DNA of 64,000 nt from a virus: positions 62,586 through 126,585 of IMG/VR virus record IMGVR_UViG_3300033146_005596, one strand, 5' to 3'. Made by a program: the position numbers and the translations under genes. Position 1 is the first letter of the stretch. Each line of letters opens with the position of its first letter. The notes under the pieces are model-generated. The model was given only the letters and a program-made list of their open reading frames with translations. It made no database searches and was not told the DNA's origin. Positions 2,581 to 63,556 of this stretch are shown here, one piece after another.

Positions 2581-3348
2581 ATGAAACTAACTAAAAAAGA
2601 AATGGAATTCGCTGTTAAAACATACGAAGATGTTCGCTACGCTAAAAGAGGGCTTATGTTTAAGAAGTCTAAGAAGAAAAGAAAAGACCCTTCTAAAATA
2701 AAAGGTGTTGTAGATTTTTATGAGTTTGGTAATGCCCAAGCTGCCCATGTTAAAAAAGGTAAATTAAATATTATAATGACAATGGGGTCTAACGAACTAC
2801 TAGACTGGATTATGGATTTTAGTATTTCATTCAAAAAAGTACCATATAAAAAGCCGGACCAGAAGTCTAAAGTACGAGTTCATAACGGATTTTTAAAATC
2901 TTATATGAACATGCGAGGCTGGGTACACGAGATTGTTAAAGGGCTAGAAGACGGAGATAAGCTCTTAATCCAAGGGCATTCAATGGGTGCTGCTATGAGC
3001 ACTTTAATGGCCATTGATATAGATTATAATTTTCCAGGCAAACTAAAAACAGATGTAATTCTAACAGGTTCACCTCGTGTTGGAAATAAGCATTTTGTAG
3101 AATCCTATAATAAAAGAGTTGGTGCTATTACTACAAGATTTGTGTATAAGTCAGATTTGGTACCTCTAGTTCCTTTCAAGTTCTTAGGCTTTAAGCATGT
3201 TGTAACTGAAACTCATTTAGGGAAAAAAAGGATTATGTTCAGCATACTAAACCATATTATGAGAAAGGGTTATAATAATGTTCTAGTAGCTGGTTATGCA
3301 GAAGCCAAGACAAACAAAAAGAGGGACAGTAATGGCTCAAAAAGCTAA
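2581..3348 (+). CDS. Class 3 lipase (alpha/beta hydrolase)
   Basis: VHNGF, GHSMG nucleophile elbow, GSPRVGN and DLVP motifs. Confidence 0.88.
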   Translation: MKLTKKEMEFAVKTYEDVRYAKRGLMFKKSKKKRKDPSKIKGVVDFYEFGNAQAAHVKKGKLNIIMTMGSNELLDWIMDFSISFKKVPYKKPDQKSKVRVHNGFLKSYMNMRGWVHEIVKGLEDGDKLLIQGHSMGAAMSTLMAIDIDYNFPGKLKTDVILTGSPRVGNKHFVESYNKRVGAITTRFVYKSDLVPLVPFKFLGFKHVVTETHLGKKRIMFSILNHIMRKGYNNVLVAGYAEAKTNKKRDSNGSKS

Positions 3349-4284: not shown

Positions 4285-6636
4285 ATGTCCAAAATAATAT
4301 TCACAAGAGCAAAGTACACTTCCCAAAATGCAGCTATAAACCTGGCTGTAGAAACGTATGCTGAACTTCCTAGTGGAGTTATAGCTGGTACAACAGGCTT
4401 AGTAAAAACGTCAACAGGCACAAAATGGCTACTAACATTCAAAGCTGCTGGATTATACATGTATGATGGTACTAACTGGTCGAAAATTAGTAAAAATATA
4501 AAATATTCTCAGATTGCAAGTCAACTTGAATCACTATGGCAGCCTGCCTCTGAAGTAGGCCCAAGCTTATACCCCGTTACAACAATTATAAACTATAATG
4601 GAAAACCATATACTAACTTCACAGGAGTCAATACTAACTTGAATCCTGAGCTTGACCAAGAAAACTGGCAAACAGTAATAGTATCCGTTTGGAATGAGTA
4701 CTACCATTATAAAAAAGGAATGCGAGCAATAGGCTCTGATAACAACACATATGTTGCATATAATGATAATGTTGGGAGTAATCCAACAAATGACTTGGAC
4801 AATGATTGGGGAATATTTTATATTATTGATGGACAGGTGGATACTTTCGCAGAGCTACCAGACTATTCCCAAGTGCAAGGGCAAAAATACTCAGTTAAAC
4901 AAACAGGTGGACTATACCTAGCTACTCCATTTAAATGGAGCTTTGTGGGAGAGGGTACAACTGGGACTTTTAGTATGCAATCAAGTGGAATTGTACCAAT
5001 TCCTTACGTTAAAAAGTTTTTAGAGCCTACCTTTTCTGGTAATACCATGCTAATGAGTGGTATTGGTACCGGGTCCATTACCTATAATGAGTTCTGGATT
5101 TTTAAAGCTAGCTTACTAAGTACTTTGCAGTCACCATTTATTAAGGTTAATGCTGGAGAATTTCCCATTCCACCTAGCATTTTTGCAGGTGTTGGAGCAA
5201 ATAATGTTATAGCTTATCTTGTATTTCTAAAGAATGACTTAACTTTGGGTTTATCTGAAGAAGATGTCAATCCAACGGATAGTACTATTATAAAGCTGGG
5301 TATTACTGTAGTATCTAATTCTTCAATAGCTTTATTGCAAACAGTACCTTGGGCAAGTACAACCACTAGTAGAGAAAGAATCGAAGGCCCAGAACTACTT
5401 AATATGGTAGTAGACGGACTAATTGGTCGGGAGTTGGCTCATCAGCAATACTCAGTAGTTCAAGAGGGTATAAATTATGAAATCAATTCATCTTTTGTTT
5501 GGAAAAAGGATATATTACAAGCGGAGCCACTAGAATGGAAGCCTTGGTGGTCTGGTGCAAACTTACTCGATGTATTCATGGAGCCAACGTTCACAGAAGT
5601 AGAAACTAAATATGATTTAAATGGTACTTTAACTGAGCTGTCTACTGATAAATGGGGTATATTTCGCTTAGTAGTAAGCCCAGCAACAGGTTTATTTGCA
5701 TTGGTCTATGGAAAACATCAATTTGATTCTAGGACAGAAGCAAAAGCTGCCTCAGTTCAATCTTTTGAGTTTGAAACTTTTCCGTTTACAAGTATGCTAG
5801 AGGTTGGACGATTCATAGTAAAAGAAGGTTGTGTTTCTTTTAGAGATTACAGTACTTTTGAATGGGTATCTGGAGTAGAGGGCTCAGCCACAGGTATACA
5901 AATAACAGCTCATAATAGCCTGAATGAAATACAAGGCGGTATTGCTGGTGAGAGATTTCACCTAGACCAAGCAGAATATATTAATAGAGATAGTAGACTA
6001 CGAAATAATTGGCAACCATTTGATGGAACTTCAGGTAGCACTTATGCTCTAAATTGTATGGTTAACTACTTGGGTAAGATTTATAAAAATATAACTGGTA
6101 CAAATACTCCAACCTCACCAGCAGCTGATACTACTAACTGGGTAGCTTTTGAGCATTTATCACCAAGCCAATTTGATGGGCTAGTTGCTATGCTAAAGGA
6201 TCTAGAGCCTGTCGGTACTATAGTCTCATCACTTCTAACAGAGTCTCAGTTCATTGCTGCAAAAAATAATAATGGTAAATGGGTAATGATGAAAGGGCAG
6301 AACATTGGGGGTTCAGACTTTTCAAACATTACAGGTATTACCTCACTTCCAAGCCAAGATGCTGAAAATGGAATGCACTTAAGAGGTGCAAACGGCCGTA
6401 CACTAGGAGCAACTGAGAACGGACAGACTAATAATATTGATAAGCTTTCTACTACTTGGGACTCAAACCAACCTGAAGGTGAAGTAGTTGTACCTGATAA
6501 TGGTGCTTGGATAGGTAGGAAGAGCCTAATCTCATACTGGGCAGCAGGTGATTCAACAACATGGCTTAAAAAGAAAGGTATCGAGACGAGAGTACCTAAC
6601 ATAGCTGTTAATTACTTTATTAAGATAAATAAATAG
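4285..6636 (+). CDS. Tail fibre / receptor-binding protein
   Basis: Short carbohydrate-binding-like repeats (W...Y..G.....G..Y) and a C-terminal tail-collar-like domain (PVGTIVSS...LRG...ETRVPNIAVNYFIK). Confidence 0.7.
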   Translation: MSKIIFTRAKYTSQNAAINLAVETYAELPSGVIAGTTGLVKTSTGTKWLLTFKAAGLYMYDGTNWSKISKNIKYSQIASQLESLWQPASEVGPSLYPVTTIINYNGKPYTNFTGVNTNLNPELDQENWQTVIVSVWNEYYHYKKGMRAIGSDNNTYVAYNDNVGSNPTNDLDNDWGIFYIIDGQVDTFAELPDYSQVQGQKYSVKQTGGLYLATPFKWSFVGEGTTGTFSMQSSGIVPIPYVKKFLEPTFSGNTMLMSGIGTGSITYNEFWIFKASLLSTLQSPFIKVNAGEFPIPPSIFAGVGANNVIAYLVFLKNDLTLGLSEEDVNPTDSTIIKLGITVVSNSSIALLQTVPWASTTTSRERIEGPELLNMVVDGLIGRELAHQQYSVVQEGINYEINSSFVWKKDILQAEPLEWKPWWSGANLLDVFMEPTFTEVETKYDLNGTLTELSTDKWGIFRLVVSPATGLFALVYGKHQFDSRTEAKAASVQSFEFETFPFTSMLEVGRFIVKEGCVSFRDYSTFEWVSGVEGSATGIQITAHNSLNEIQGGIAGERFHLDQAEYINRDSRLRNNWQPFDGTSGSTYALNCMVNYLGKIYKNITGTNTPTSPAADTTNWVAFEHLSPSQFDGLVAMLKDLEPVGTIVSSLLTESQFIAAKNNNGKWVMMKGQNIGGSDFSNITGITSLPSQDAENGMHLRGANGRTLGATENGQTNNIDKLSTTWDSNQPEGEVVVPDNGAWIGRKSLISYWAAGDSTTWLKKKGIETRVPNIAVNYFIKINK

Positions 6637-22348: not shown

Positions 22349-22697
22349 CTAACAATTGTTTAGAAAGCTTCATAGCTTTGTCCATATCATAAGATAACAA
22401 CGCAAATAATATTGCTCTTCTTTCTGGGCTCAAGCTATCTTTGTTAAGCTCATAGAAATCTTCAGCAGAAACCTGTGTTTGATTTTCATCATAGTATTTT
22501 CTAAACTCACAGTAATGTACAATCTTTTCAAGGTCCAGCATATCTTGACCGGGCTTCTTTCTCAAAATATATTTGATAGCTGACGCAGTACAAAAGTCCA
22601 TGTTATGGATTAGCTCAATAGGCTGTACTCCTGCATTGTCCTGATGCTTTTTATAATGGTTTCCACCGGGCTGATAATCTAACGGATTTTTACTCAT
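22314..22697 (-). CDS. DUF3310 family protein
   Basis: GGNHYK, QPIELI, FC.ASAIKYILR and DLEK..HY motifs. Confidence 0.8.
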   Translation of the reverse strand: MSKNPLDYQPGGNHYKKHQDNAGVQPIELIHNMDFCTASAIKYILRKKPGQDMLDLEKIVHYCEFRKYYDENQTQVSAEDFYELNKDSLSPERRAILFALLSYDMDKAMKLSKQLLDDKKRLEARSV

Positions 22698-22816
22698 TTG
22701 TTTTATTCTCCTTATGTTATTATAATAAGGAGATTTTAATAGTTTTTAATTATTAAAATAAAAAAAAATCCACTCAATACTAAGACGAGTGGATTTGAGC
22801 AGTTAATAAACTGGGT

Positions 22817-23425
22817 TTAATCCTCCCAAAGTTTCTGGTAGGTATAACAAGTTGTTGCATTAAAGTTGATACTACCTGCTGAGGTAGAAAACTCCATGTC
22901 GTACTCTTCTCCATTAAGCTCAAAAGTGATATATAATTCAGCCGCACTAATATCTATGTAGTTTTCAGGAGTTAAATCTGAATGAATAAAGCCTTCTCCA
23001 TACATAGTGGGGTCTACTGAGTTGACATCAGCTAAGTATAATGTATTTCTAACTTCTTCTTCAAAGTCTTCAACCTTACCACTAGCCTCATCAATAAGCC
23101 AATACATAGCTGGGCTATTCATTGCATCTTTTAACAACTGGTCTTGGTCAAAAGTTAAAGTTCCTTTTACCTCCTCATCAGTTTGAACGTCACTGGTTGA
23201 CATTACAGCGTAGTAGGATTCAAATATAACTTCCCCTGTAATATTAAACTCAAAATCACTTTGCTGAGACTGGGTAAACTCTGCATTGTTCAGACTAATA
23301 CTTACACCAGAACCACTGCCTTCTTGGACTCTAGCTTTACTTTTAACAGAAATGAAATCTCCAGACTCCACTATAATATTAGTCCCCGGAATTCTAAATT
23401 CATTTCTTGCTTGTATTCTGTTCAT
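22817..23425 (-). CDS. Acidic late protein, candidate internal head protein
   Basis: ACTTATTA upstream. N-terminal IPGTNIIVESGD module followed by RVQE. Confidence 0.5.
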   Translation of the reverse strand: MNRIQARNEFRIPGTNIIVESGDFISVKSKARVQEGSGSGVSISLNNAEFTQSQQSDFEFNITGEVIFESYYAVMSTSDVQTDEEVKGTLTFDQDQLLKDAMNSPAMYWLIDEASGKVEDFEEEVRNTLYLADVNSVDPTMYGEGFIHSDLTPENYIDISAAELYITFELNGEEYDMEFSTSAGSINFNATTCYTYQKLWED

Positions 23426-23481
23426 AATTAAAATGTTTCTCCTTTGTTAATTATATAATAAGTACCATCAAAAAAAAACAG

Positions 23482-24849
23482 TTAAAAAGTTAAGCCCAAA
23501 TTTTTTAATGATTTATTCAAGTCTTCTTTTCTCTGTTTTTCAGAGACTACGATTCTATCTGGGTTCCAGACTTCAGTTGGGCCATAAGGAAAAACTTGAT
23601 TCAATAGCTCTAGTACTGCTGTTGTTGCATCTGAAACGTCCTTTGCATTTATGCCACATCTTTCTTTTTCCCAAGCGTTCTCTCCACCTCCATACGACAT
23701 AGTTGGGCCACTTGAGTGGTCAATTTTAGTAGTTCCTGTTCTTTTTCTTTTTGCATATTCCAGAGTCTTTAGCTCGTTTTTAAAATAGCAATTCCTTCCT
23801 GATTTAACACGGCCAGTTGTTATATAAGATAATAAATTGAGGTACGGTCCTACTTCTTTATCTACTGATAACTTTCTTGTATCTATCTCAATAGAGTTCA
23901 AATACTGTATCAGACTTTCTGACTGGAAATTATCAAAACTTACTGCTTCCAAGTGTATATTGCCCAAATGTACAAGGTCTTTTATAAAGAATTTAATAGC
24001 ATCTAGTGATATTCTACCACCAAGCGGGGATACAACAATTTGCATATCAACAACAAATATTGGCTCATTTTTTATACGGTCTAACTCTAAATGGCCCATT
24101 GCTAATCCAAGATTATCGCCAGTTAATGCTAAGTCAACTGCTAAGCACCTAGGAATATGAGGCTTGTAATAAAAGCTATATCGTGCTAGATTATACTCAA
24201 AGAATATATCTTTAATCTGGTCCCAAATACAATGAGTTGGGTCTTCTTTAACACTAGCAAATATATGTCCTTCTATACTCCTAAACTCCGTCATAAAAAT
24301 GTTATCAATTAGTCTATGGTCCATTATAAACCTTGATTTTTGTCCAGAGGGGATTCCAGATATATCTTTAAGTGACTTCAACAAGTCATCTATATAATAT
24401 TGCTTTTTCTCTTTTGGTACCCACTCCAAATCAGTTGGGCTGTACTGGTCAACTTCGTGCTCTGGTACAATCTGAGGCGGCCGCCCTTTTCCGCCTTTAA
24501 AAACAGGAAATCTATCATCTGGATTTTCATAGTCCTCTGGGCGCCAGTCATACTCAGCACCTTTAATAATTAAGTTCTTAGGATTTTTATGGGCTTCTTG
24601 CAGGATATATTTATCAATTGGACTTTCAATATCATTAGGTGAAGAATCCAAAATAGTACGGCCCCAGTAATTACCTCTAAGTCTTGACTCAATTCTTCCT
24701 TTAGCATCATTGTATAACCGCATAACAAACTCAGGGCTATTATGAGTTATTATGTTATCATTTACAATAAATAAGCCATCATCAGCCCCTACAGTTATAC
24801 ACCTTTGTGGTTTTTTTCCGACTTTTTTTATACTTACTATTTTAGGCAT
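23482..24849 (-). CDS. Terminase large subunit, C-terminal fragment fused to split-intein IntC
   Basis: Starts with a 37-aa IntC ending THN/S. Then the LDSS coupling region and an RNase H-like nuclease (AVDLA..GD, SFDNFQS, KIDH, KDVSDA). Confidence 0.9.
   Translation of the reverse strand: MPKIVSIKKVGKKPQRCITVGADDGLFIVNDNIITHNSPEFVMRLYNDAKGRIESRLRGNYWGRTILDSSPNDIESPIDKYILQEAHKNPKNLIIKGAEYDWRPEDYENPDDRFPVFKGGKGRPPQIVPEHEVDQYSPTDLEWVPKEKKQYYIDDLLKSLKDISGIPSGQKSRFIMDHRLIDNIFMTEFRSIEGHIFASVKEDPTHCIWDQIKDIFFEYNLARYSFYYKPHIPRCLAVDLALTGDNLGLAMGHLELDRIKNEPIFVVDMQIVVSPLGGRISLDAIKFFIKDLVHLGNIHLEAVSFDNFQSESLIQYLNSIEIDTRKLSVDKEVGPYLNLLSYITTGRVKSGRNCYFKNELKTLEYAKRKRTGTTKIDHSSGPTMSYGGGENAWEKERCGINAKDVSDATTAVLELLNQVFPYGPTEVWNPDRIVVSEKQRKEDLNKSLKNLGLTF
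24739..24849 (-). mobile_element. Split class 3 intein, C-fragment (37 aa)
   Basis: MPKIVSIKKVGKKPQRCITV...IITHN followed by Ser+1. Block F Cys and block G Thr are present. Confidence 0.88.
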
Positions 24850-26737
24850 CTTGTCTCTCCTTTACAAAAACTTTCATACCACAATCAAATATTCTGTTAT
24901 AATTATTTGCAATCATGTTTTCAACTTCTGTTTTTGACTCATCAAAATTAAATCCCTCTATATTTTTTAATTTATGCTTCTGAAATTGCTGCCTTGATTT
25001 TAGAATAAGAGAATCTTTAAAATAGTAATAATTTGGTGAGCTTATTCTTTCTAAGGAAAATCCTAGTTTTTCATAGCTGGTACCACCAAACCATCTATAA
25101 TCACAATAAGATATTATATTTCCTTTATACCTATTTTCAAAATGTTTTAATAACTTTGCTTTTCCACCTAAAACATGAACTCCCTGTTTTTCACAAAACC
25201 TAAGCAATTCATAGTTATACTTTTTATTAAACCTTGATTTTCCAAAGGACATTACACTAACAAGTTCAGTTCCTTGGTATAGCCCTAGTTTTATAGACGC
25301 AGCGATATATCCTTGTAAATGATTTTCTTCTAAAAATAGTTTATATTCTTTATTTCCTACTTCCCTAATATCAGTCTTCCTTCCTCCTATTTTTTTTGAT
25401 TTTCCAAGCAAGCTAGAAAGGGTTGCTAAAACTAATTTTTTATTATTTATATACTCATTTTCCCATATATGTATAATTCTAATTCCTTTTTTTTCTGCAA
25501 GTTTAGTCTTGTCTATATGATACTTTTTTCCTTTCATTAGCTCAGAATGCCAATAAATACCATCATACTCTATTCCTAAATTAAGTTCTGGAATAAAAAT
25601 GTCTATTTCCTTACCATCTAAATATTTACGGCTGTTTAATACAGTTTTATACCCTAGAGCTTTTATATAACTGTTTATTTCAATCTCTGCTCTCGAAGCA
25701 TGCTTTTGAATAGGAAAGCATTTTTGACATTGAGCTTTGTGTATATGACTAGGTGGGTAGATTAAAGGTGTTATCTCACCACACTTAGTACATTCAGTAA
25801 AAAAAGTATCATCTTTATAGATAAACTTTAAAGAGTATTTTGAAAAATCAAGATTTTTGAACTTCTCTAAATTTTCTAAATGATGCCTCTTTTGTCTCTT
25901 CATTTTTATTGTGTCTGTACTCCATAGGGCTTTATAGCCTCCATACTTTTTATCCACAGTTGCTTTAGCTTTATCTCCAGCTCCCTTTAACTGATGAGGG
26001 TTTATAACCCCGTACCTTTCTTTTAATGTTTCCTGATAATGCCTCAAGCCCTCTTCTGACTGCATAAAATGTTCTGTACCATACTTTTTAAGAAAAGTAT
26101 CTCTTGACTTCAAGTTACGTTTTTTATAAAAATCAGGTTTAGATTCTATTGTCTTTTTAGCTTTAGTTTTAACTACCTCTGATTGAGTTGCATACTCAGT
26201 CCCATACTTCTTTAAGTTTGTTTCTCTACTTTTTTTCTTAAACCTTTCAAGTTGAAGAGCACTCTCTACGCCATATTTTTCAAGCATAGTCTTTTTTTGA
26301 TTTATTAAAACATAGCTATAGTAATCTTCCATTGTTCCATATTTTTCTACTATAGTAGCTCGTCTTTTAGCTTCACGTTTTTCAAACCATAAAGGGTCTT
26401 TATTTATTGTTATTTTACTTTTTATATCTCTTTGATTTTTCCAGTTTTCCATAGTACCATAGTGTTCTAGAATAGTTTTTTTCCATATTTCTTTTCTATC
26501 TTTTCCCCAGTCTGGATTATTTTTAATAGTCTTATTCCTTTTCAGTTGCTTTTGCTTTTCAGCTTCTTCTAAAGACCCATATTTTTCGAGCCTTGCTTTC
26601 TTAGCTCTATCCATAACTATTTTAGAACAGGAAGTACACCTAGCATTAGACAACCTTTTGTAATCAGTATAGGACTCAAAAGGTTTTTTACACATACCAC
26701 AAATAACAGTTCTTGATTCTTTTAGTTTCTTACTCAT
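24842..26737 (-). mobile_element. Free-standing homing endonuclease gene between the intein halves
   Basis: CxxC zinc motifs, many KYG-type repeats, PD-(D/E)xK/Vsr-like EIDIFIPELNLGIEYDGIYWH, and a C-terminal FLEENHLQG...ELLRFC...SYCD domain typical of such phage endonucleases. Confidence 0.85.
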
Positions 26738-26740
26738 ATA

Positions 26741-26748
26741 TAATTAGT
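26741..26748 (-). promoter_or_regulatory. Putative late promoter ACTWATTA (representative copy)
   Basis: Precedes the portal, protease, terminase, neck-like and many head genes, often 3 nt before ATG. Confidence 0.75.
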
Positions 26749-26785
26749 TCACTTACATTTTTAGGTATAAACTTGACGACTAAGA

Positions 26786-28345
26786 CTATGAGAGCTCTGG
26801 AATACTGAAACTATACGTGTCCATGTTTTCTAAAATAAACCTAGTTGTTTTTACTTCTTGTAGACTTTTTCCATTTTTAGTATAATTAACAAGCCATAAA
26901 TGTTCTAAGTTACATTCAACTTTTTTTCCATTATCAAAAGTTATTTCATAGGCATCGTCAGTTCCCTCATAGGGTATACCTACTACAGGTGTAGTACCTA
27001 AAAAAGGATGAGTTATAGTATCCCCAAGTTTCAAGGCCCCTATTGGGACTTTGCCTTGTGGAGTTTCAACCAAAGTCTCAAGAACCAGAGCTTTTCCTGC
27101 ATCAAGGAAAAAGCTGATTTCACTGAGTACAATGCTGGCAAAGTTTATTCCTAATAATTTGCTAGGGTTAGTGACTATTTTTATATTAGCACCATTAGAG
27201 AAAGATAGCGCTGAGGAAGGAGCAGCTGTTGTCCAGTAAATTCTATTATCTCCTTTAGTGCCTTTATCATTTTTCCATTCAAAATCAAGTTTTCTCATTT
27301 TGTCCGCTGTCCGTACCCTTTCAAAATATGGTGACTGCGCTAAAATATTAAGGAACGGCTCTAGTAATAGCTCTGAGGTTTTTTCAATGGAGTATGAAAT
27401 AAAACCTTGTGCAATTATTGAAGCTGGTGATAAACCAAAATATTCTTTTGAATCTCGCATTAAAGATAAATGGGTAGTTATGTACAAAGTTATTAGGGTA
27501 GAAAGATATGAATTATGAGTTATTATATTATTTTCTAATACATATAGCCCCTCTTCTGAGTCAAGTGTGATACATTTTTGTTCTACAGGCGGAAGCTTTT
27601 TAATTCCTTTTAGTTTTACTTTACCCTTATAGTCTCCATTTTCTTGACCTATATCTGATGGAAATAAATAATGCAAATCTGGATTTTCAAGTATAAACTT
27701 AGTTTCTACATTTTCCCATGCTCTATAGCTATAAGACACTCTCCAGATGTGGTTAAGCCCACACTGTGCTGTTCTACTATCAGCAAACTCGAGTTCATAT
27801 ACATCTTTTTTACCTTGAGGGTGTTCAGCAATTACTTTAGCTGTACCTCCATTTGGGGTTACAACTGTATCTCCTACAGTTAATTCACCCATTGTTTTTA
27901 TTCCTGTTGGTATTTTAATTCTAGTATCTACTGGTTGTTCTTTACCAAAGCCTATGTGGGGATATAAAATTAAGTCCCTATACTCTGCACTATTGCTAAA
28001 AAATAGCTTAAATATATCTTTTATTCTTGGGTATGTACTCAAGATAGCTCTTCCTAAGTACTTCTCAGTTAAAAACTCCTCAGGTGTTGGTGGTTTACTT
28101 GTATATAGTATCTTCCAGCTATTCTGTACCAAATACGATTTCTGTACTTCATTCAATTCAGGGTTATTTAATAGGTAGTCTAGTGCTAATTGTACCTTCT
28201 CATTATTACCGTTTAATTTTTCTATAAAAGTAGGGTGCTCAGCAGCTTGTGCATCTCCCATTATTACATCAGTTAATAAGGAGGATAGCTCGTTCAATTC
28301 TTTCATTGAGTAAATTGTATTATTTTTTATATTTAAATCAACCAT
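26786..28345 (-). CDS. Terminase large subunit, N-terminal ATPase fragment with a mini-intein and IntN
   Basis: P..EEFL..KYLG, Walker A GFGK/S interrupted by an intein, Walker B-position IVLSE, and a C-terminal intein N-fragment. Confidence 0.9.
   Translation of the reverse strand: MVDLNIKNNTIYSMKELNELSSLLTDVIMGDAQAAEHPTFIEKLNGNNEKVQLALDYLLNNPELNEVQKSYLVQNSWKILYTSKPPTPEEFLTEKYLGRAILSTYPRIKDIFKLFFSNSAEYRDLILYPHIGFGKEQPVDTRIKIPTGIKTMGELTVGDTVVTPNGGTAKVIAEHPQGKKDVYELEFADSRTAQCGLNHIWRVSYSYRAWENVETKFILENPDLHYLFPSDIGQENGDYKGKVKLKGIKKLPPVEQKCITLDSEEGLYVLENNIITHNSYLSTLITLYITTHLSLMRDSKEYFGLSPASIIAQGFISYSIEKTSELLLEPFLNILAQSPYFERVRTADKMRKLDFEWKNDKGTKGDNRIYWTTAAPSSALSFSNGANIKIVTNPSKLLGINFASIVLSEISFFLDAGKALVLETLVETPQGKVPIGALKLGDTITHPFLGTTPVVGIPYEGTDDAYEITFDNGKKVECNLEHLWLVNYTKNGKSLQEVKTTRFILENMDTYSFSIPELS
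26789..27091 (-). mobile_element. Split class 3 intein, N-fragment (101 aa)
   Basis: Block A ALVLETLVETPQG...LKLGDTI (Ala1). Block B CNLEHLW. No C-terminal blocks before the stop. Confidence 0.88.
27512..27940 (-). mobile_element. Contiguous class 3 mini-intein (143 aa) in the Walker A motif
   Basis: EQPVDTRIKIPTG...CGLNHIW...QKCITL...IITHN/S. No endonuclease domain. Confidence 0.9.
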
Positions 28346-28399
28346 ATACTAATAAGTTCTTGTTGGTACCGGGCTTAAACTGGTACCAACTTATTAAAC

Positions 28400-28873
28400 A
28401 TGAAAGAAGCTGAAGTTAATAACATTATTAGAAAGAGTTTAGACTGGGGTTATAAAATTCCAGATGATGGAAGTTCAATGTCAATGGGTATAAAAAGACC
28501 TTTTGATGTATTTGGTATTATAGACGGGAGACCTATCTATATAGAATCCAAAGCTATGAATAAAATGCAGAGTTTTAATCTTGGTAAAATACGAGACCAC
28601 CAAATAAAAAGCCTAGTGGATATTAAGAAATTAAATCCAGATGCAATTTGTGGTATAGCTCTATCAGTTAATTGTGGACGTGCAAAGCATAGACTCTATC
28701 TTTGGACTGATGTTGAAGAAATTGCAAGACGTCGAGATAATAAAGAAAACTTTAAAAAAACTGAATTAGAAACTCTGGAAAACTATGTACTACGCAAAAA
28801 AACCACCTGCATAAATGGAGATGGTTACACAGTTAGCTGTCATAAATATGACATCAAAAGCTTAATTAGCTAA
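28400..28873 (+). CDS. PD-(D/E)xK nuclease, RecU-like Holliday junction resolvase
   Basis: KIPD, PFD.FG, YIESK and IRDHQI..L motifs. Confidence 0.75.
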   Translation: MKEAEVNNIIRKSLDWGYKIPDDGSSMSMGIKRPFDVFGIIDGRPIYIESKAMNKMQSFNLGKIRDHQIKSLVDIKKLNPDAICGIALSVNCGRAKHRLYLWTDVEEIARRRDNKENFKKTELETLENYVLRKKTTCINGDGYTVSCHKYDIKSLIS

Positions 28874-30406
28874 ATCATAATATTTCTGAAAAGCCAAGAG
28901 CTTAGCTTTGTGCTTATCAACTTCTTGCTCTATTTTATTCAAGCGTCTATCTAAGAAAGATTCTTGCTGAACAGACTTTTCTTCTTGGGCCTCTTCTGAG
29001 CTTACCTGTGGCTCTTTCGCTTTTTCAGGATTTTGCTCTACCTGCTCTGTATCGTCAGTTGGCTCCTCAGAAGCTTTTCCAGTTCTAAACTCTTCAATAA
29101 CCCTTTTATTTATAGGTAAGACCTCATTTATTGCTTCTTTAGAGAACTCTGAGCTTTTAGACCGGATTAAGACTTGTCCTGCTTCTAGCATTTTTCCATT
29201 GTACTCAAATGAAAATTGTACCAGTCTTGGGTCCAAGCCATATAACTCTTTTGAGCTATCAAACTTGGAATATAACTTTAAAATTTCGTTTCTGTTATCT
29301 ATCTTTTCATTACCAAACTTTGTACAAATAGCTACTGTAAAGAAAGTGCTTAGCTCATAGCCTTCTCCTTCTCTTAAAATAAGACTTCGTGAGTTCCCGT
29401 GTAAATCAAAGGTGATTGTTTCAGTATTAGTAGTATTGTTCAATAAGCGAACTAGTGCTGCTAAAAAAGATGAGTTTTTAGTTGATATGTCCTTCATATA
29501 CTCATCAATGAACTCTGGTATCAACTTAATAGGTGTGGCTGCTAATTCAGTTGTTTTATCCTTATCATTAAAATCATAGCCTCCATCACCTTCTTGCATA
29601 CCTAGAAAACTCAAGCCTGTTATATGAGATATTACTTTACTTAATGATTTCTGCATATAATAGTCTTTTAATAAAAAGCTATGAATTGATTTTCTTGCGG
29701 ACTCTTTTGCTTTATAGCTAATTGCTAATGCGTTAAACTGTTGCTCTCTTGAAGCTGCTGCTCTTGTAAATGAAAATATATACTGGAGGATTGATTCCTT
29801 AAAACCTTCCTCTTTTTGTTCATCATTAGCTTGTGGTAAGAAATACATCTCAACTAGAGGTCCATGCCCAAACTTAATTGCATCTGTCAATAGCAGGTCA
29901 TATATTTTAAATGATTTTTGGTTAGTGCTTTGAGTTTCTTTTTGTTCTGGCTGCTCATCAGCTTCTTGTACTTTGGTACCATTGTTTCTTTGTGCTTTTT
30001 CAGCATTGGCCTTTGCTTTTTTCCTATTTTCTGGGTCTGAAAGCAAAGGATTTATTTTAAATTTACCATTTTTATATTCTGTGTGTACTTTTTGAAAAGT
30101 CCCTATATTTAGCTGTTGAGTGTCTGTTTGAGACAAGGCTTTTTTATAAATCTCACTTAGGATATATAATCTTATTCCTACATCTGCATCGTTTTTTAAA
30201 TTCAGAGGGTCATCATTAGTGGATAGTTTTTTCCAGGCGTCCATTAACTCTTTATATAAAGTCAAAAAATCACCATCATAACCATGCAAAGCAGCAACGG
30301 CACCAATTATTTCCTTAAAGCTTACTATAGAGCCTTTGGGAATACTGATGCCATTAACTGTGGTTGTTCTTTCTAAATAAATACATCTTTCTACAAATCT
30401 TTTCAT
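28862..30406 (-). CDS. Hypothetical late protein, candidate internal head protein
   Basis: Leaderless late motif. MKRFVE start and KVQE/QQES motifs. Confidence 0.5.
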   Translation of the reverse strand: MKRFVERCIYLERTTTVNGISIPKGSIVSFKEIIGAVAALHGYDGDFLTLYKELMDAWKKLSTNDDPLNLKNDADVGIRLYILSEIYKKALSQTDTQQLNIGTFQKVHTEYKNGKFKINPLLSDPENRKKAKANAEKAQRNNGTKVQEADEQPEQKETQSTNQKSFKIYDLLLTDAIKFGHGPLVEMYFLPQANDEQKEEGFKESILQYIFSFTRAAASREQQFNALAISYKAKESARKSIHSFLLKDYYMQKSLSKVISHITGLSFLGMQEGDGGYDFNDKDKTTELAATPIKLIPEFIDEYMKDISTKNSSFLAALVRLLNNTTNTETITFDLHGNSRSLILREGEGYELSTFFTVAICTKFGNEKIDNRNEILKLYSKFDSSKELYGLDPRLVQFSFEYNGKMLEAGQVLIRSKSSEFSKEAINEVLPINKRVIEEFRTGKASEEPTDDTEQVEQNPEKAKEPQVSSEEAQEEKSVQQESFLDRRLNKIEQEVDKHKAKLLAFQKYYDLAN

Positions 30407-62395: not shown

Positions 62396-63556
62396 ATGCT
62401 ATTATCAGAAACAGGAAGCAAAGTCTTCTATAAAAAATTTTATGAATGGATTCAGCTACAAGACCTCAGGCCAGAAATGGGTATATCTGATTTTACTAAA
62501 AAGTTTAAAGATGAAAGGACTTTAGAGTTTGGCCCAGAGAAAAACTTAGCTCGGCTTGAAGATATGGAACAAAATGGTAATGATATTACTTTTATATGGA
62601 CAACTCCAGTAGGAAGCCGTGACCCAAAAAAAGTTAATGATAACCACGAGATTGTTGATAATCCCGAACGTGAGTATATCCTAAAAATAAAGTTTATAGA
62701 CTTTGTACAAAAAACGAATAACTTAAGAATTGAGGATTTGGAAGACTTTCATAGTATAGCTATGTCCTGTAATATTCAGATAGATGATAATGACCCGAGC
62801 TTTCAATTTCAAGGTATGAATTATAACATAAGCCAGTTAGATGGCTCATTGAATCCCACAAATATACCACCTAAAGATTGGAGAAGATTCCATAATAATG
62901 ACAACTTCTTATCTAAGTTTATGCAGGGCTTAATAGATAGTATTGAATTTTTCTACAAGCCTATGATGCTGATGTTCAATGATTATAACTCTTATGCTTC
63001 AAGTATAGCTGCAGGAGAAGAGATAAACATAAATGATGATGTTTATGATAACCCTTACAATATTGATGGATTTCCAGGTGAGGTTGAGTTTACCCCTGAA
63101 TATAATACTGATGCAGAAGAAAAAGATATAAATGAAGACCCAGAAGATGATAGGTTTAATATTGACTGGGACAGCTTAGATATAGATGATTCAGATTTTG
63201 AGGTTACTATAGAAGATGATGACAGAGGTTGGGTACTTGATATTAACAACCCAGAATCGGAAGAGATTGAATATTCAGATTTTTCAAGTGATACTGAAGA
63301 TTTGGAGCCAGTAATTGAGCCATTGTTAAAGGATGATGAAAGTTCTGATGATGTAGAAGATAAAGCAGAAAAAGAAGACATGGAATTTGATTTTGATGAT
63401 TTTTATGATGAGTTTGATACAGGCCTTTATGCTAAGGACGAAGAAGTAGACTATGTGGACAAGACGGATGACATTGAAAATATTACTGATGATAGTATTG
63501 TTTTGGATGATGATGCCGAATTTGATATTGATGATATATTCAACGCGTTTAGCTAG
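62396..63556 (+). CDS. Late protein with a very acidic C-terminal half
   Basis: ACTAATTA-TAT-ATG start. D.NDPSFQFQG..Y...Q.D globular N-domain. Confidence 0.6.
   Translation: MLLSETGSKVFYKKFYEWIQLQDLRPEMGISDFTKKFKDERTLEFGPEKNLARLEDMEQNGNDITFIWTTPVGSRDPKKVNDNHEIVDNPEREYILKIKFIDFVQKTNNLRIEDLEDFHSIAMSCNIQIDDNDPSFQFQGMNYNISQLDGSLNPTNIPPKDWRRFHNNDNFLSKFMQGLIDSIEFFYKPMMLMFNDYNSYASSIAAGEEININDDVYDNPYNIDGFPGEVEFTPEYNTDAEEKDINEDPEDDRFNIDWDSLDIDDSDFEVTIEDDDRGWVLDINNPESEEIEYSDFSSDTEDLEPVIEPLLKDDESSDDVEDKAEKEDMEFDFDDFYDEFDTGLYAKDEEVDYVDKTDDIENITDDSIVLDDDAEFDIDDIFNAFS

Follow-up and report, generated by a model that had tools for sequence, protein, structure and literature searches.

A fractured phage terminase gene with an endonuclease gene in the gap and halves probably joined by a split class 3 intein

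How can a complete large terminase subunit (TerL) arise when its gene is broken in two and a third gene lies between the pieces? The question is raised by a locus in the IMG/VR virus record IMGVR_UViG_3300033146_005596, of which we analysed positions 62,586 to 126,585 (this whole stretch of 64,000 nucleotides (nt) is called the window, and its own numbering is used throughout). On the minus strand of the window, a gene for the N-terminal part of the terminase (TerL-N) is followed by a free-standing endonuclease gene and by a gene for the C-terminal part (TerL-C). A first-pass annotation, made from the letters of the DNA, had proposed that the two terminase pieces are joined by a naturally split intein of class 3, whose N-terminal half (IntN) ends TerL-N and whose C-terminal half (IntC) begins TerL-C. 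Our analysis, which is based on sequence comparison, favours this proposal: with a probability of about 0.8, the locus is a fractured terminase large-subunit gene, the halves of which are joined by a split class 3 intein, with a homing endonuclease gene of the EDxHD/Hef type between them.

One terminase in two genes

The TerL-N gene (26786..28345, minus strand; 519 amino acids, aa) and the TerL-C gene (23482..24849, minus; 455 aa) were both taken from the list of open reading frames (ORFs). The former consists, in order, of a first part of the N-extein, an intein in cis (intein 1), a second part of the N-extein, IntN and a stop codon. The latter starts with IntC, after which the C-extein (418 aa counted from the Ser at position +1, plus stop) occupies 23482..24738 (minus). 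A tblastn search with the C-extein matched 115 phage records, in 49 of which the match spans 80% or more of the query; the best matches (28% identity, E 3e-19) are annotated as terminase large subunit. The N-terminus and the exteins of TerL-N, Walker A and Walker B motifs included, can be aligned with annotated TerLs of three phages and with the metagenomic protein P0002. When TerL-N and TerL-C were placed against three annotated TerLs (637-670 aa), two insertions became visible. The first interrupts Walker A, between GFGK and SYLS, and the motif GxGK[ST] is restored across intein 1; the second lies six residues past the Walker B strand, directly after ...VLSEISFFLDAGK. The two proteins contain between them an ATPase (Walker A/B) and a C-terminal nuclease region homologous to those of annotated TerLs, which identifies the broken protein as a terminase. 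Pfam named no terminase family for TerL-N or TerL-C, and the PHROG terminase matches overlap the intein parts and were excluded from the evidence.

The exact limits of the inteins were obtained from P0002, the best metagenomic homologue, which is an uninterrupted TerL of 693 aa without both inteins. We spliced the window proteins in a script, removing TerL-N aa 136-278 (intein 1), TerL-N aa 419-519 (IntN) and TerL-C aa 1-37 (IntC). The product, with the predicted splice junction ...FFLDAGK/SPEFV..., is also 693 aa long and aligns without a gap over 693/693 residues of P0002 (82.1% identity). Since an uninterrupted homologue matches both junctions exactly, the agreement goes far beyond chance; the junctions are, moreover, codon-exact. 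The SPEFV junction and the length of 693 aa after removal of both inteins had been predicted in the first-pass annotation, which had also proposed the alignment with an intein-free homologue as a check, and both predictions were thereby reproduced.

All three ORFs are intact and co-oriented. A spacer of 48 nt, read directly from the sequence (26738..26785, minus), separates the stop codon of TerL-N from the ATG of the endonuclease gene (24842..26737, minus; 631 aa; identified by its matches to phrog_3339 and DUF7487). The stop codon of the latter is overlapped by the ATG of TerL-C (8-nt overlap), upstream of which stands AAGGAG, a Shine-Dalgarno-like motif. No terminator-like site was seen between the three genes on their strand, promoter- and terminator-like sites are no commoner than in shuffled sequences, and the three genes probably share one transcript. 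The spacer upstream of the endonuclease gene folds no more stably than shuffles do (z 0.16); upstream hairpins of the kind that Dassa et al. describe were accordingly not seen at this locus.

It should be considered whether the break is real, or whether the endonuclease region is removed as an RNA intron or bypassed by recoding, which would yield a contiguous intein. Such a possibility is suggested by the shared reading frame of TerL-N and the endonuclease ORF, and by the occurrence of group I introns in this TerL family. However, TerL-C lies in a different frame, and an Rfam E-value scan of 22500-29000 returned no intron model at E up to 1. A scan of the same kind picks up a group I intron (82.5 bits) in TerL-C of the relative L071, which indicates that introns in this TerL family are detectable by this method. 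Furthermore, the end of IntN and the start of IntC match the positions of independently encoded halves in relatives. Translation that continues past the end of TerL-N into the endonuclease ORF was rejected because of four in-frame stops: the terminal TAG, followed by TAG, TAA and TAA in the spacer. We therefore regard an intron or recoding as extremely improbable; RNA splicing that joins the frames, an objection anticipated in the first-pass annotation, finds no support in the scan or in the stops.

The intein halves and their predicted chemistry

IntN (26789..27091, that is nt 27091-26789, minus; TerL-N aa 419-519) is 101 aa long and begins with Ala1 directly after ...FFLDAGK. It contains H64-L65-W66 in block B (Trp at position B:12) and ends in ...FSIPELS, followed by TAG. 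IntC (24739..24849, that is nt 24849-24739, minus; TerL-C aa 1-37) is 37 aa long, with a basic N-terminal half, Cys17 at block F position F:4, and T35-H36-N37 in block G (Thr at G:5), after which Ser38 forms position +1. The net charge is -6 for IntN and +3 for IntC (+6 in its first 16 aa). Both boundaries were derived from P0002, and they coincide with what had been read from the sequence beforehand, namely an IntN of 101 aa with Ala1 and HLW, a basic IntC of 37 aa with the block F Cys, THN and Ser+1, and the Trp-Cys-Thr (WCT) triplet of class 3 (here W66, Cys17 and T35). The sequence-level characters of class 3 are thus all present (no nucleophile at position 1, Trp at B:12, Cys at F:4, Thr at G:5, a terminal Asn and Ser+1). 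The same is true for those of a fractured gene in the sense of Dassa et al. (2009), i.e. halves in separate co-oriented ORFs, a canonical split loop and a free-standing endonuclease gene between them.

These residues are strictly conserved in relatives. Ala1 and the His and Trp of IntN are invariant in 16/16 rows of an alignment of TerL-N homologues ending in IntN (A3), and the His and Trp of H-x-W are also invariant in the 11 rows of alignment A2. C17, T35, H36, N37 and S38 are invariant in 17/17 rows of an alignment of TerL-C homologues starting with IntC (A1). Selection could be estimated from a pair of related loci with the same split (L010 and L019), which differ in 268 of 4690 nt (5.7% divergence). 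The ratio of nonsynonymous to synonymous substitution rates (dN/dS) was 0.006 for the N-extein, 0.20 for IntN, 0.09 for the endonuclease, 0.03 for IntC and 0.04 for the C-extein. The values of 0.03-0.20 show that IntN, the endonuclease and IntC are all under purifying selection in this lineage.

The closest solved structures for IntN are those of the gp41-1 inteins (6riz, E 2.4e-7; 6qaz, E 4.9e-6); IntC alone gave chance-level matches when compared with PDB sequences. A link to a solved class 3 intein is provided by intein 1, a cis mini-intein of 143 aa in Walker A (27512..27940, that is nt 27940-27512, minus; TerL-N aa 136-278; boundaries from P0002). It lies in the context GFGK/E...ITHN/SYLS, starts with Glu, and contains H-I-W, the block F Cys and THN followed by Ser; the block F His is absent. 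Its best PDB match, over the full length and with Cys on Cys, is the class 3 intein of Mycobacterium smegmatis DnaB (6bs8, E 3.7e-9), and its sequence marks it as a paralogue of the split intein in the same TerL. In an alignment of the two, the break between IntN and IntC falls in a loop of intein 1, which is the canonical endonuclease-insertion loop, and the block F Cys of IntC aligns with that of intein 1, the counterpart of which in 6bs8 is the Cys of the "VRC" stretch. The latter residue appears to be Cys118, which is needed for trans-splicing of an artificially split M. smegmatis DnaB intein (PMC10559147).

We infer the following course of events. The acidic IntN and the basic IntC would associate to form a single HINT fold, in which Cys17 of IntC (F:4) would attack the Lys-Ala1 peptide bond at the N-terminal junction and produce a branched thioester, as in the class 3 route. 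The N-extein would then pass to Ser+1 of TerL-C. Cyclisation of Asn37 would free the intein, and an O-N shift would leave the peptide bond ...FFLDAGK-SPEFV.... As both the attack by Cys17 and the transfer to Ser+1 would be performed by residues of TerL-C, both nucleophiles would lie on the product of this gene. Trans-splicing, together with cis-splicing of the Walker A mini-intein, would yield the 693-aa TerL.

Alternatively, trans-splicing might follow a route other than that of class 3, e.g. one in which Ser+1 attacks the N-terminal junction directly, as in class 2. The route has been deduced from motifs only, and intein classes are described as highly plastic (PMC7891396). Nevertheless, the WCT triplet is complete and invariant, and the counterpart of the Cys in the alignment is the block F Cys of a class 3 intein of solved structure, which makes such a route highly improbable. 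It might also be that no peptide bond is formed at all, the intein halves acting as mere dimerisation modules that hold the TerL pieces together non-covalently. A fragmented phage nrdA has been reported to be assembled via interaction domains derived from a mobile element (PMC3045599), and the block F His is missing from the intein of the window. On the other hand, the HxW motif, the Cys, THN and Ser+1 are invariant among relatives whose exteins are only 37-47% identical, which would not be expected if binding alone mattered, and the dN/dS of IntC in the related pair is 0.03. Non-covalent assembly is therefore, in our opinion, quite improbable.

Several observations weigh against joining by a split class 3 intein. 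The block F His, the usual helper of Asn cyclisation, is replaced by Gly (DDGLF); this Gly25 is invariant in 17/17 rows of A1, and Gly is also found in the cis mini-intein of the relative L025. The IntN of the window diverges more than any other in its clade (end branch 0.98, identity at most 47%). No close relative of the window copy with the same split was found, its nearest relative (P0002) being without both inteins, and the selection figures given above are those of the L010/L019 pair. Moreover, grafting of WCT onto the gp41-1 scaffold gave no splicing (Beyer et al. 2020, PMC7664689), which means that the WCT signature alone is no guarantee of activity.

The endonuclease gene and the relatives of the locus

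The 631-aa ORF in the gap was confirmed to be an endonuclease gene, in agreement with the initial claim that such a gene separates the halves. Its product matches phrog_3339 ("homing endonuclease") with E 5e-119 and the Pfam family DUF7487, in a region of KYG repeats, with E 5.5e-21. A match to MTES_1575 (restriction-endonuclease-like; E 1.2e-6, 29 bits) stayed below the cut-off of 38.2. The repeat region is followed by a putative nuclease core resembling Vsr and PD-(D/E)XK enzymes (aa ~353-442) and by a conserved C-terminal domain. Relatives of the protein occur in 420 phage records, some of them annotated as Hef or homing endonuclease. A profile built from three sequences (the window protein and two homologues) had as its top PDB match 3r3p, the nuclease domain of I-Bth0305I, a weak match (E 0.0031), and D379, E390, W396 and H397 are kept in 3/3 endonuclease homologues. 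The single sequence gave no match of the 3r3p type in PDB, the only one being a weak GNAT-like match in the C-terminal domain (24842-25300, minus; aa ~479-562), to the GNAT-type acetyltransferase 2bsw (E 0.0045). The gene has a lower G+C content than the TerL flanks and occurs only once in the 126.6-kb record; L010, L071 and L074 have homologues of it at the corresponding place. The enzyme most likely cuts intein-less TerL alleles, repair of which would copy in the whole IntN-endonuclease-IntC cassette.

In order to place the locus, 74 related loci were collected, 18 from viral contigs and 56 from metagenomes; two of them lack TerL and two could not be assessed at the junction, which left 70. 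The split-intein site is empty in 52/70 and occupied by a contiguous intein in 8/70, while 10/70 are interrupted at or near it. The contiguous inteins include LAGLIDADG-type elements in L006 (duplicated as L007 and L028), L008, L027, L031 and L043; in L006 and L008, both of the TerL sites that are occupied in the window hold contiguous LAGLIDADG class 3 inteins. L025 contains a cis mini-intein of 139 aa at this site, the C-terminal half of which closely resembles the IntC of the window. Seven of the ten interrupted loci are split at the exact site: L010 (= L038), L019 (= L037) and L039, together the L010 group, and L071 and L074, i.e. three lineages. All seven have a DUF7487 endonuclease gene between IntN and IntC, and in L010, L019, L071 and L074 the ATG of IntC is preceded by a purine run resembling a Shine-Dalgarno sequence. 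The break in L024 and L032 lies 18 residues upstream of the window site, and L060 was left unclassified. The family supports the model that mini-inteins are invaded by free-standing endonuclease genes.

These loci also bear on the quality of the record. A dead terminase of a defective phage, or a chimeric metagenome contig, might be suspected, since the window comes from a single metagenomic record with an estimated completeness of 43%. However, besides the intact ORFs and the codon-exact junctions, the gene order, the overlap of start and stop codons at the beginning of IntC and the split point all recur in independently assembled contigs. A dead or mis-assembled terminase is accordingly highly unlikely.

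Among the 120 TerL-C homologues listed, 38 have an IntC at their start and 82 do not. The IntC-start sites of these 38 are the window site (24, its own copy included), the upstream site (8), Walker A (3), ILDSSP (2) and one elsewhere; all 24 window-site IntCs listed contain the Cys and THNS. A HMMER search with IntN (E up to 0.001) found 3080 proteins, and a full IntN ends 25 of the 150 listed, with HxW in 24/25. A word-based search with the IntN region returned nothing beyond the window's own protein, and scans of viral contigs with the single proteins TerL-C and P0002 gave no matches. In a quick tree of IntN, calculated from a short alignment (46 sequences, 93 columns), one side holds the split IntNs from every site together with the L025 mini-intein, a grouping with weak support (79 in the Shimodaira-Hasegawa-like approximate likelihood ratio test, SH-aLRT), and the other holds the LAGLIDADG inteins; the split forms of the second site group with L025 (SH-aLRT 90). 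This topology hints that one split intein lineage may have spread between TerL sites.

The relatives display further variation. The endonuclease gene of L039 (4143-6008) is 67 codons shorter than that of L010 (4942-7008), corresponding to 621 versus 688 aa, in loci that are otherwise 97-99.8% identical, which suggests indels within the endonuclease repeat region. L071 carries a group I intron (RF00028, 82.5 bits, E 2e-21; 2866-3090, plus strand) in TerL-C, eight codons past the split-intein junction, so that a stretch of ~2 kb of its TerL contains three such elements, namely the split intein, the endonuclease gene and the intron. In L024 the gene between IntN and IntC (4447-5631, plus) is TnpB-like (OrfB_IS605, E 1e-12; Cas12f1-like TNB, E 1e-10) and is followed by ~370 nt up to the ATG of IntC; an Rfam scan of this TnpB-bearing gap gave no match. 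The Walker A site is found in split form in L029 (1370-4722, plus), with a gap ORF of 280 aa that has no Pfam match and looks HNH-like by eye. Fracturing into three or more pieces also occurs among the relatives: L074 encodes a middle piece of TerL (49-873, plus) that starts with an IntC, at the Walker A site, and ends with an IntN, at the window site, and the 150-aa protein P0182 consists of an IntC end (...VITHN), ~19 extein residues and a full IntN. In the window itself, an ORF resembling Holliday junction resolvases (phrog_843, E 2.5e-11) lies on the opposite strand at 28400-28873 (plus), directly upstream of the start of TerL-N.

Comparison with known inteins and significance

The nearest published system is the AceL NrdHF intein, reported by Hoffmann et al. 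(2021, PMC7891396); this split intein of class 3 belongs to a fractured gene and splices in vitro. Their paper counts 1701 class 3 inteins in nr, none of them split, and presents AceL NrdHF as the first split one; it is also the sole class 3 split intein listed in a 2025 review (PMC11766414). Both inteins are naturally split class 3 elements with Ala1, the block F Cys and Ser+1, broken at the canonical point (98 + 48 aa in AceL, 101 + 37 aa in the window), and AceL, too, lies in a fractured gene, probably from a phage, the halves being separated by a free-standing gene for a homing endonuclease. AceL differs, according to its published description, in having an MCT triplet and in the absence of the F:13 and G:6 His, whereas W-C-T and THN are kept in the window; furthermore, it occupies nrdHF and is accompanied by a GIY-YIG endonuclease, in contrast to the TerL host and the probable Hef/EDxHD-type enzyme described here. 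It was not among the PDB sequence matches of the window IntN or of intein 1. New in relation to AceL are therefore the canonical WCT triplet, the terminase host with its probable Hef/EDxHD-type endonuclease, and a sizeable metagenomic family that uses at least five sites. [quoted passage not shown]

The architecture of the locus corresponds to that described for fractured genes by Dassa et al. (2009, PMC2677866), where split inteins are accompanied by GIY-YIG or Vsr-like endonuclease genes, the latter in half of the loci. The order IntN-endonuclease-IntC and the often overlapping frames are shared with gp41-1 and the other loci of that study, and the half lengths in the window are within the ranges reported there (88-105 and 33-54 aa). 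The one terminase locus in that work is split atypically, with a C part of 122 aa. The gp41-1 inteins, which are the best solved relatives of the window IntN and, like the intein of the window, end in THN, belong to class 1, with Cys1 and an Asp at the block F position (PMC12245125, PMC7664689), where the window has Ala1, Trp and the block F Cys; a 2025 paper regards gp41-1 as transitional between classes 1 and 3 (PMC12245125). Class 3 inteins that splice in cis are known from phage terminases and from the DnaB of mycobacteria (Tori et al. 2010, PMC2807308; bioRxiv 10.1101/2025.01.02.630785). They have in common with the intein of the window the WCT signature, a preference for TerL as host protein and insertion into nucleotide-binding motifs. 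They are, however, contiguous, mostly with an in-frame LAGLIDADG domain, whereas the intein of the window is split and its endonuclease is a separate gene of another family.

With respect to the endonuclease, Hef-type enzymes are counted in the EDxHD family (Taylor et al. 2011, PMC3239194). The window protein appears to share with I-Bth0305I and this family the nuclease core pattern D...IEYxGxxWH, the 3r3p match of its profile and the Hef annotation of its phage relatives. It differs in being much longer (631 aa), in the KYG repeats of DUF7487 without recognised NUMOD motifs, and in its extra C-terminal domain. In the literature searched, which takes in few subscription journals and no supplements, neither this intein family nor any terminase with a split class 3 intein was seen to be described.

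To conclude, it seems somewhat better than an even chance that the window belongs to a large, undescribed radiation of natural split class 3 WCT inteins, related to gp41-1, which use at least five sites in one TerL family and have several free-standing nuclease partners (of the DUF7487/EDxHD type, the unclassified 280-aa ORF and the TnpB-like gene). If this is true, split class 3 inteins would not be "very rare", and the radiation would form a natural series showing which residues let a gp41-1-like fold run class 3 chemistry, an ability that the graft of WCT alone did not confer.

For the ligation of proteins, split inteins are standard tools. Those of class 3 would have both nucleophiles on the short IntC side, and the fusion partner carrying IntN would need no catalytic Cys. 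The locus and its relatives offer dozens of natural variants with a canonical WCT triplet, an IntC of 37 aa and an IntN that best matches the well-studied gp41-1.

The terminase of these viruses carries a wide range of selfish elements, since cis inteins, split inteins, homing endonuclease genes, a group I intron and a TnpB-like gene have all been found in the TerLs of the relatives. This indicates that an essential packaging gene tolerates repeated fracturing.

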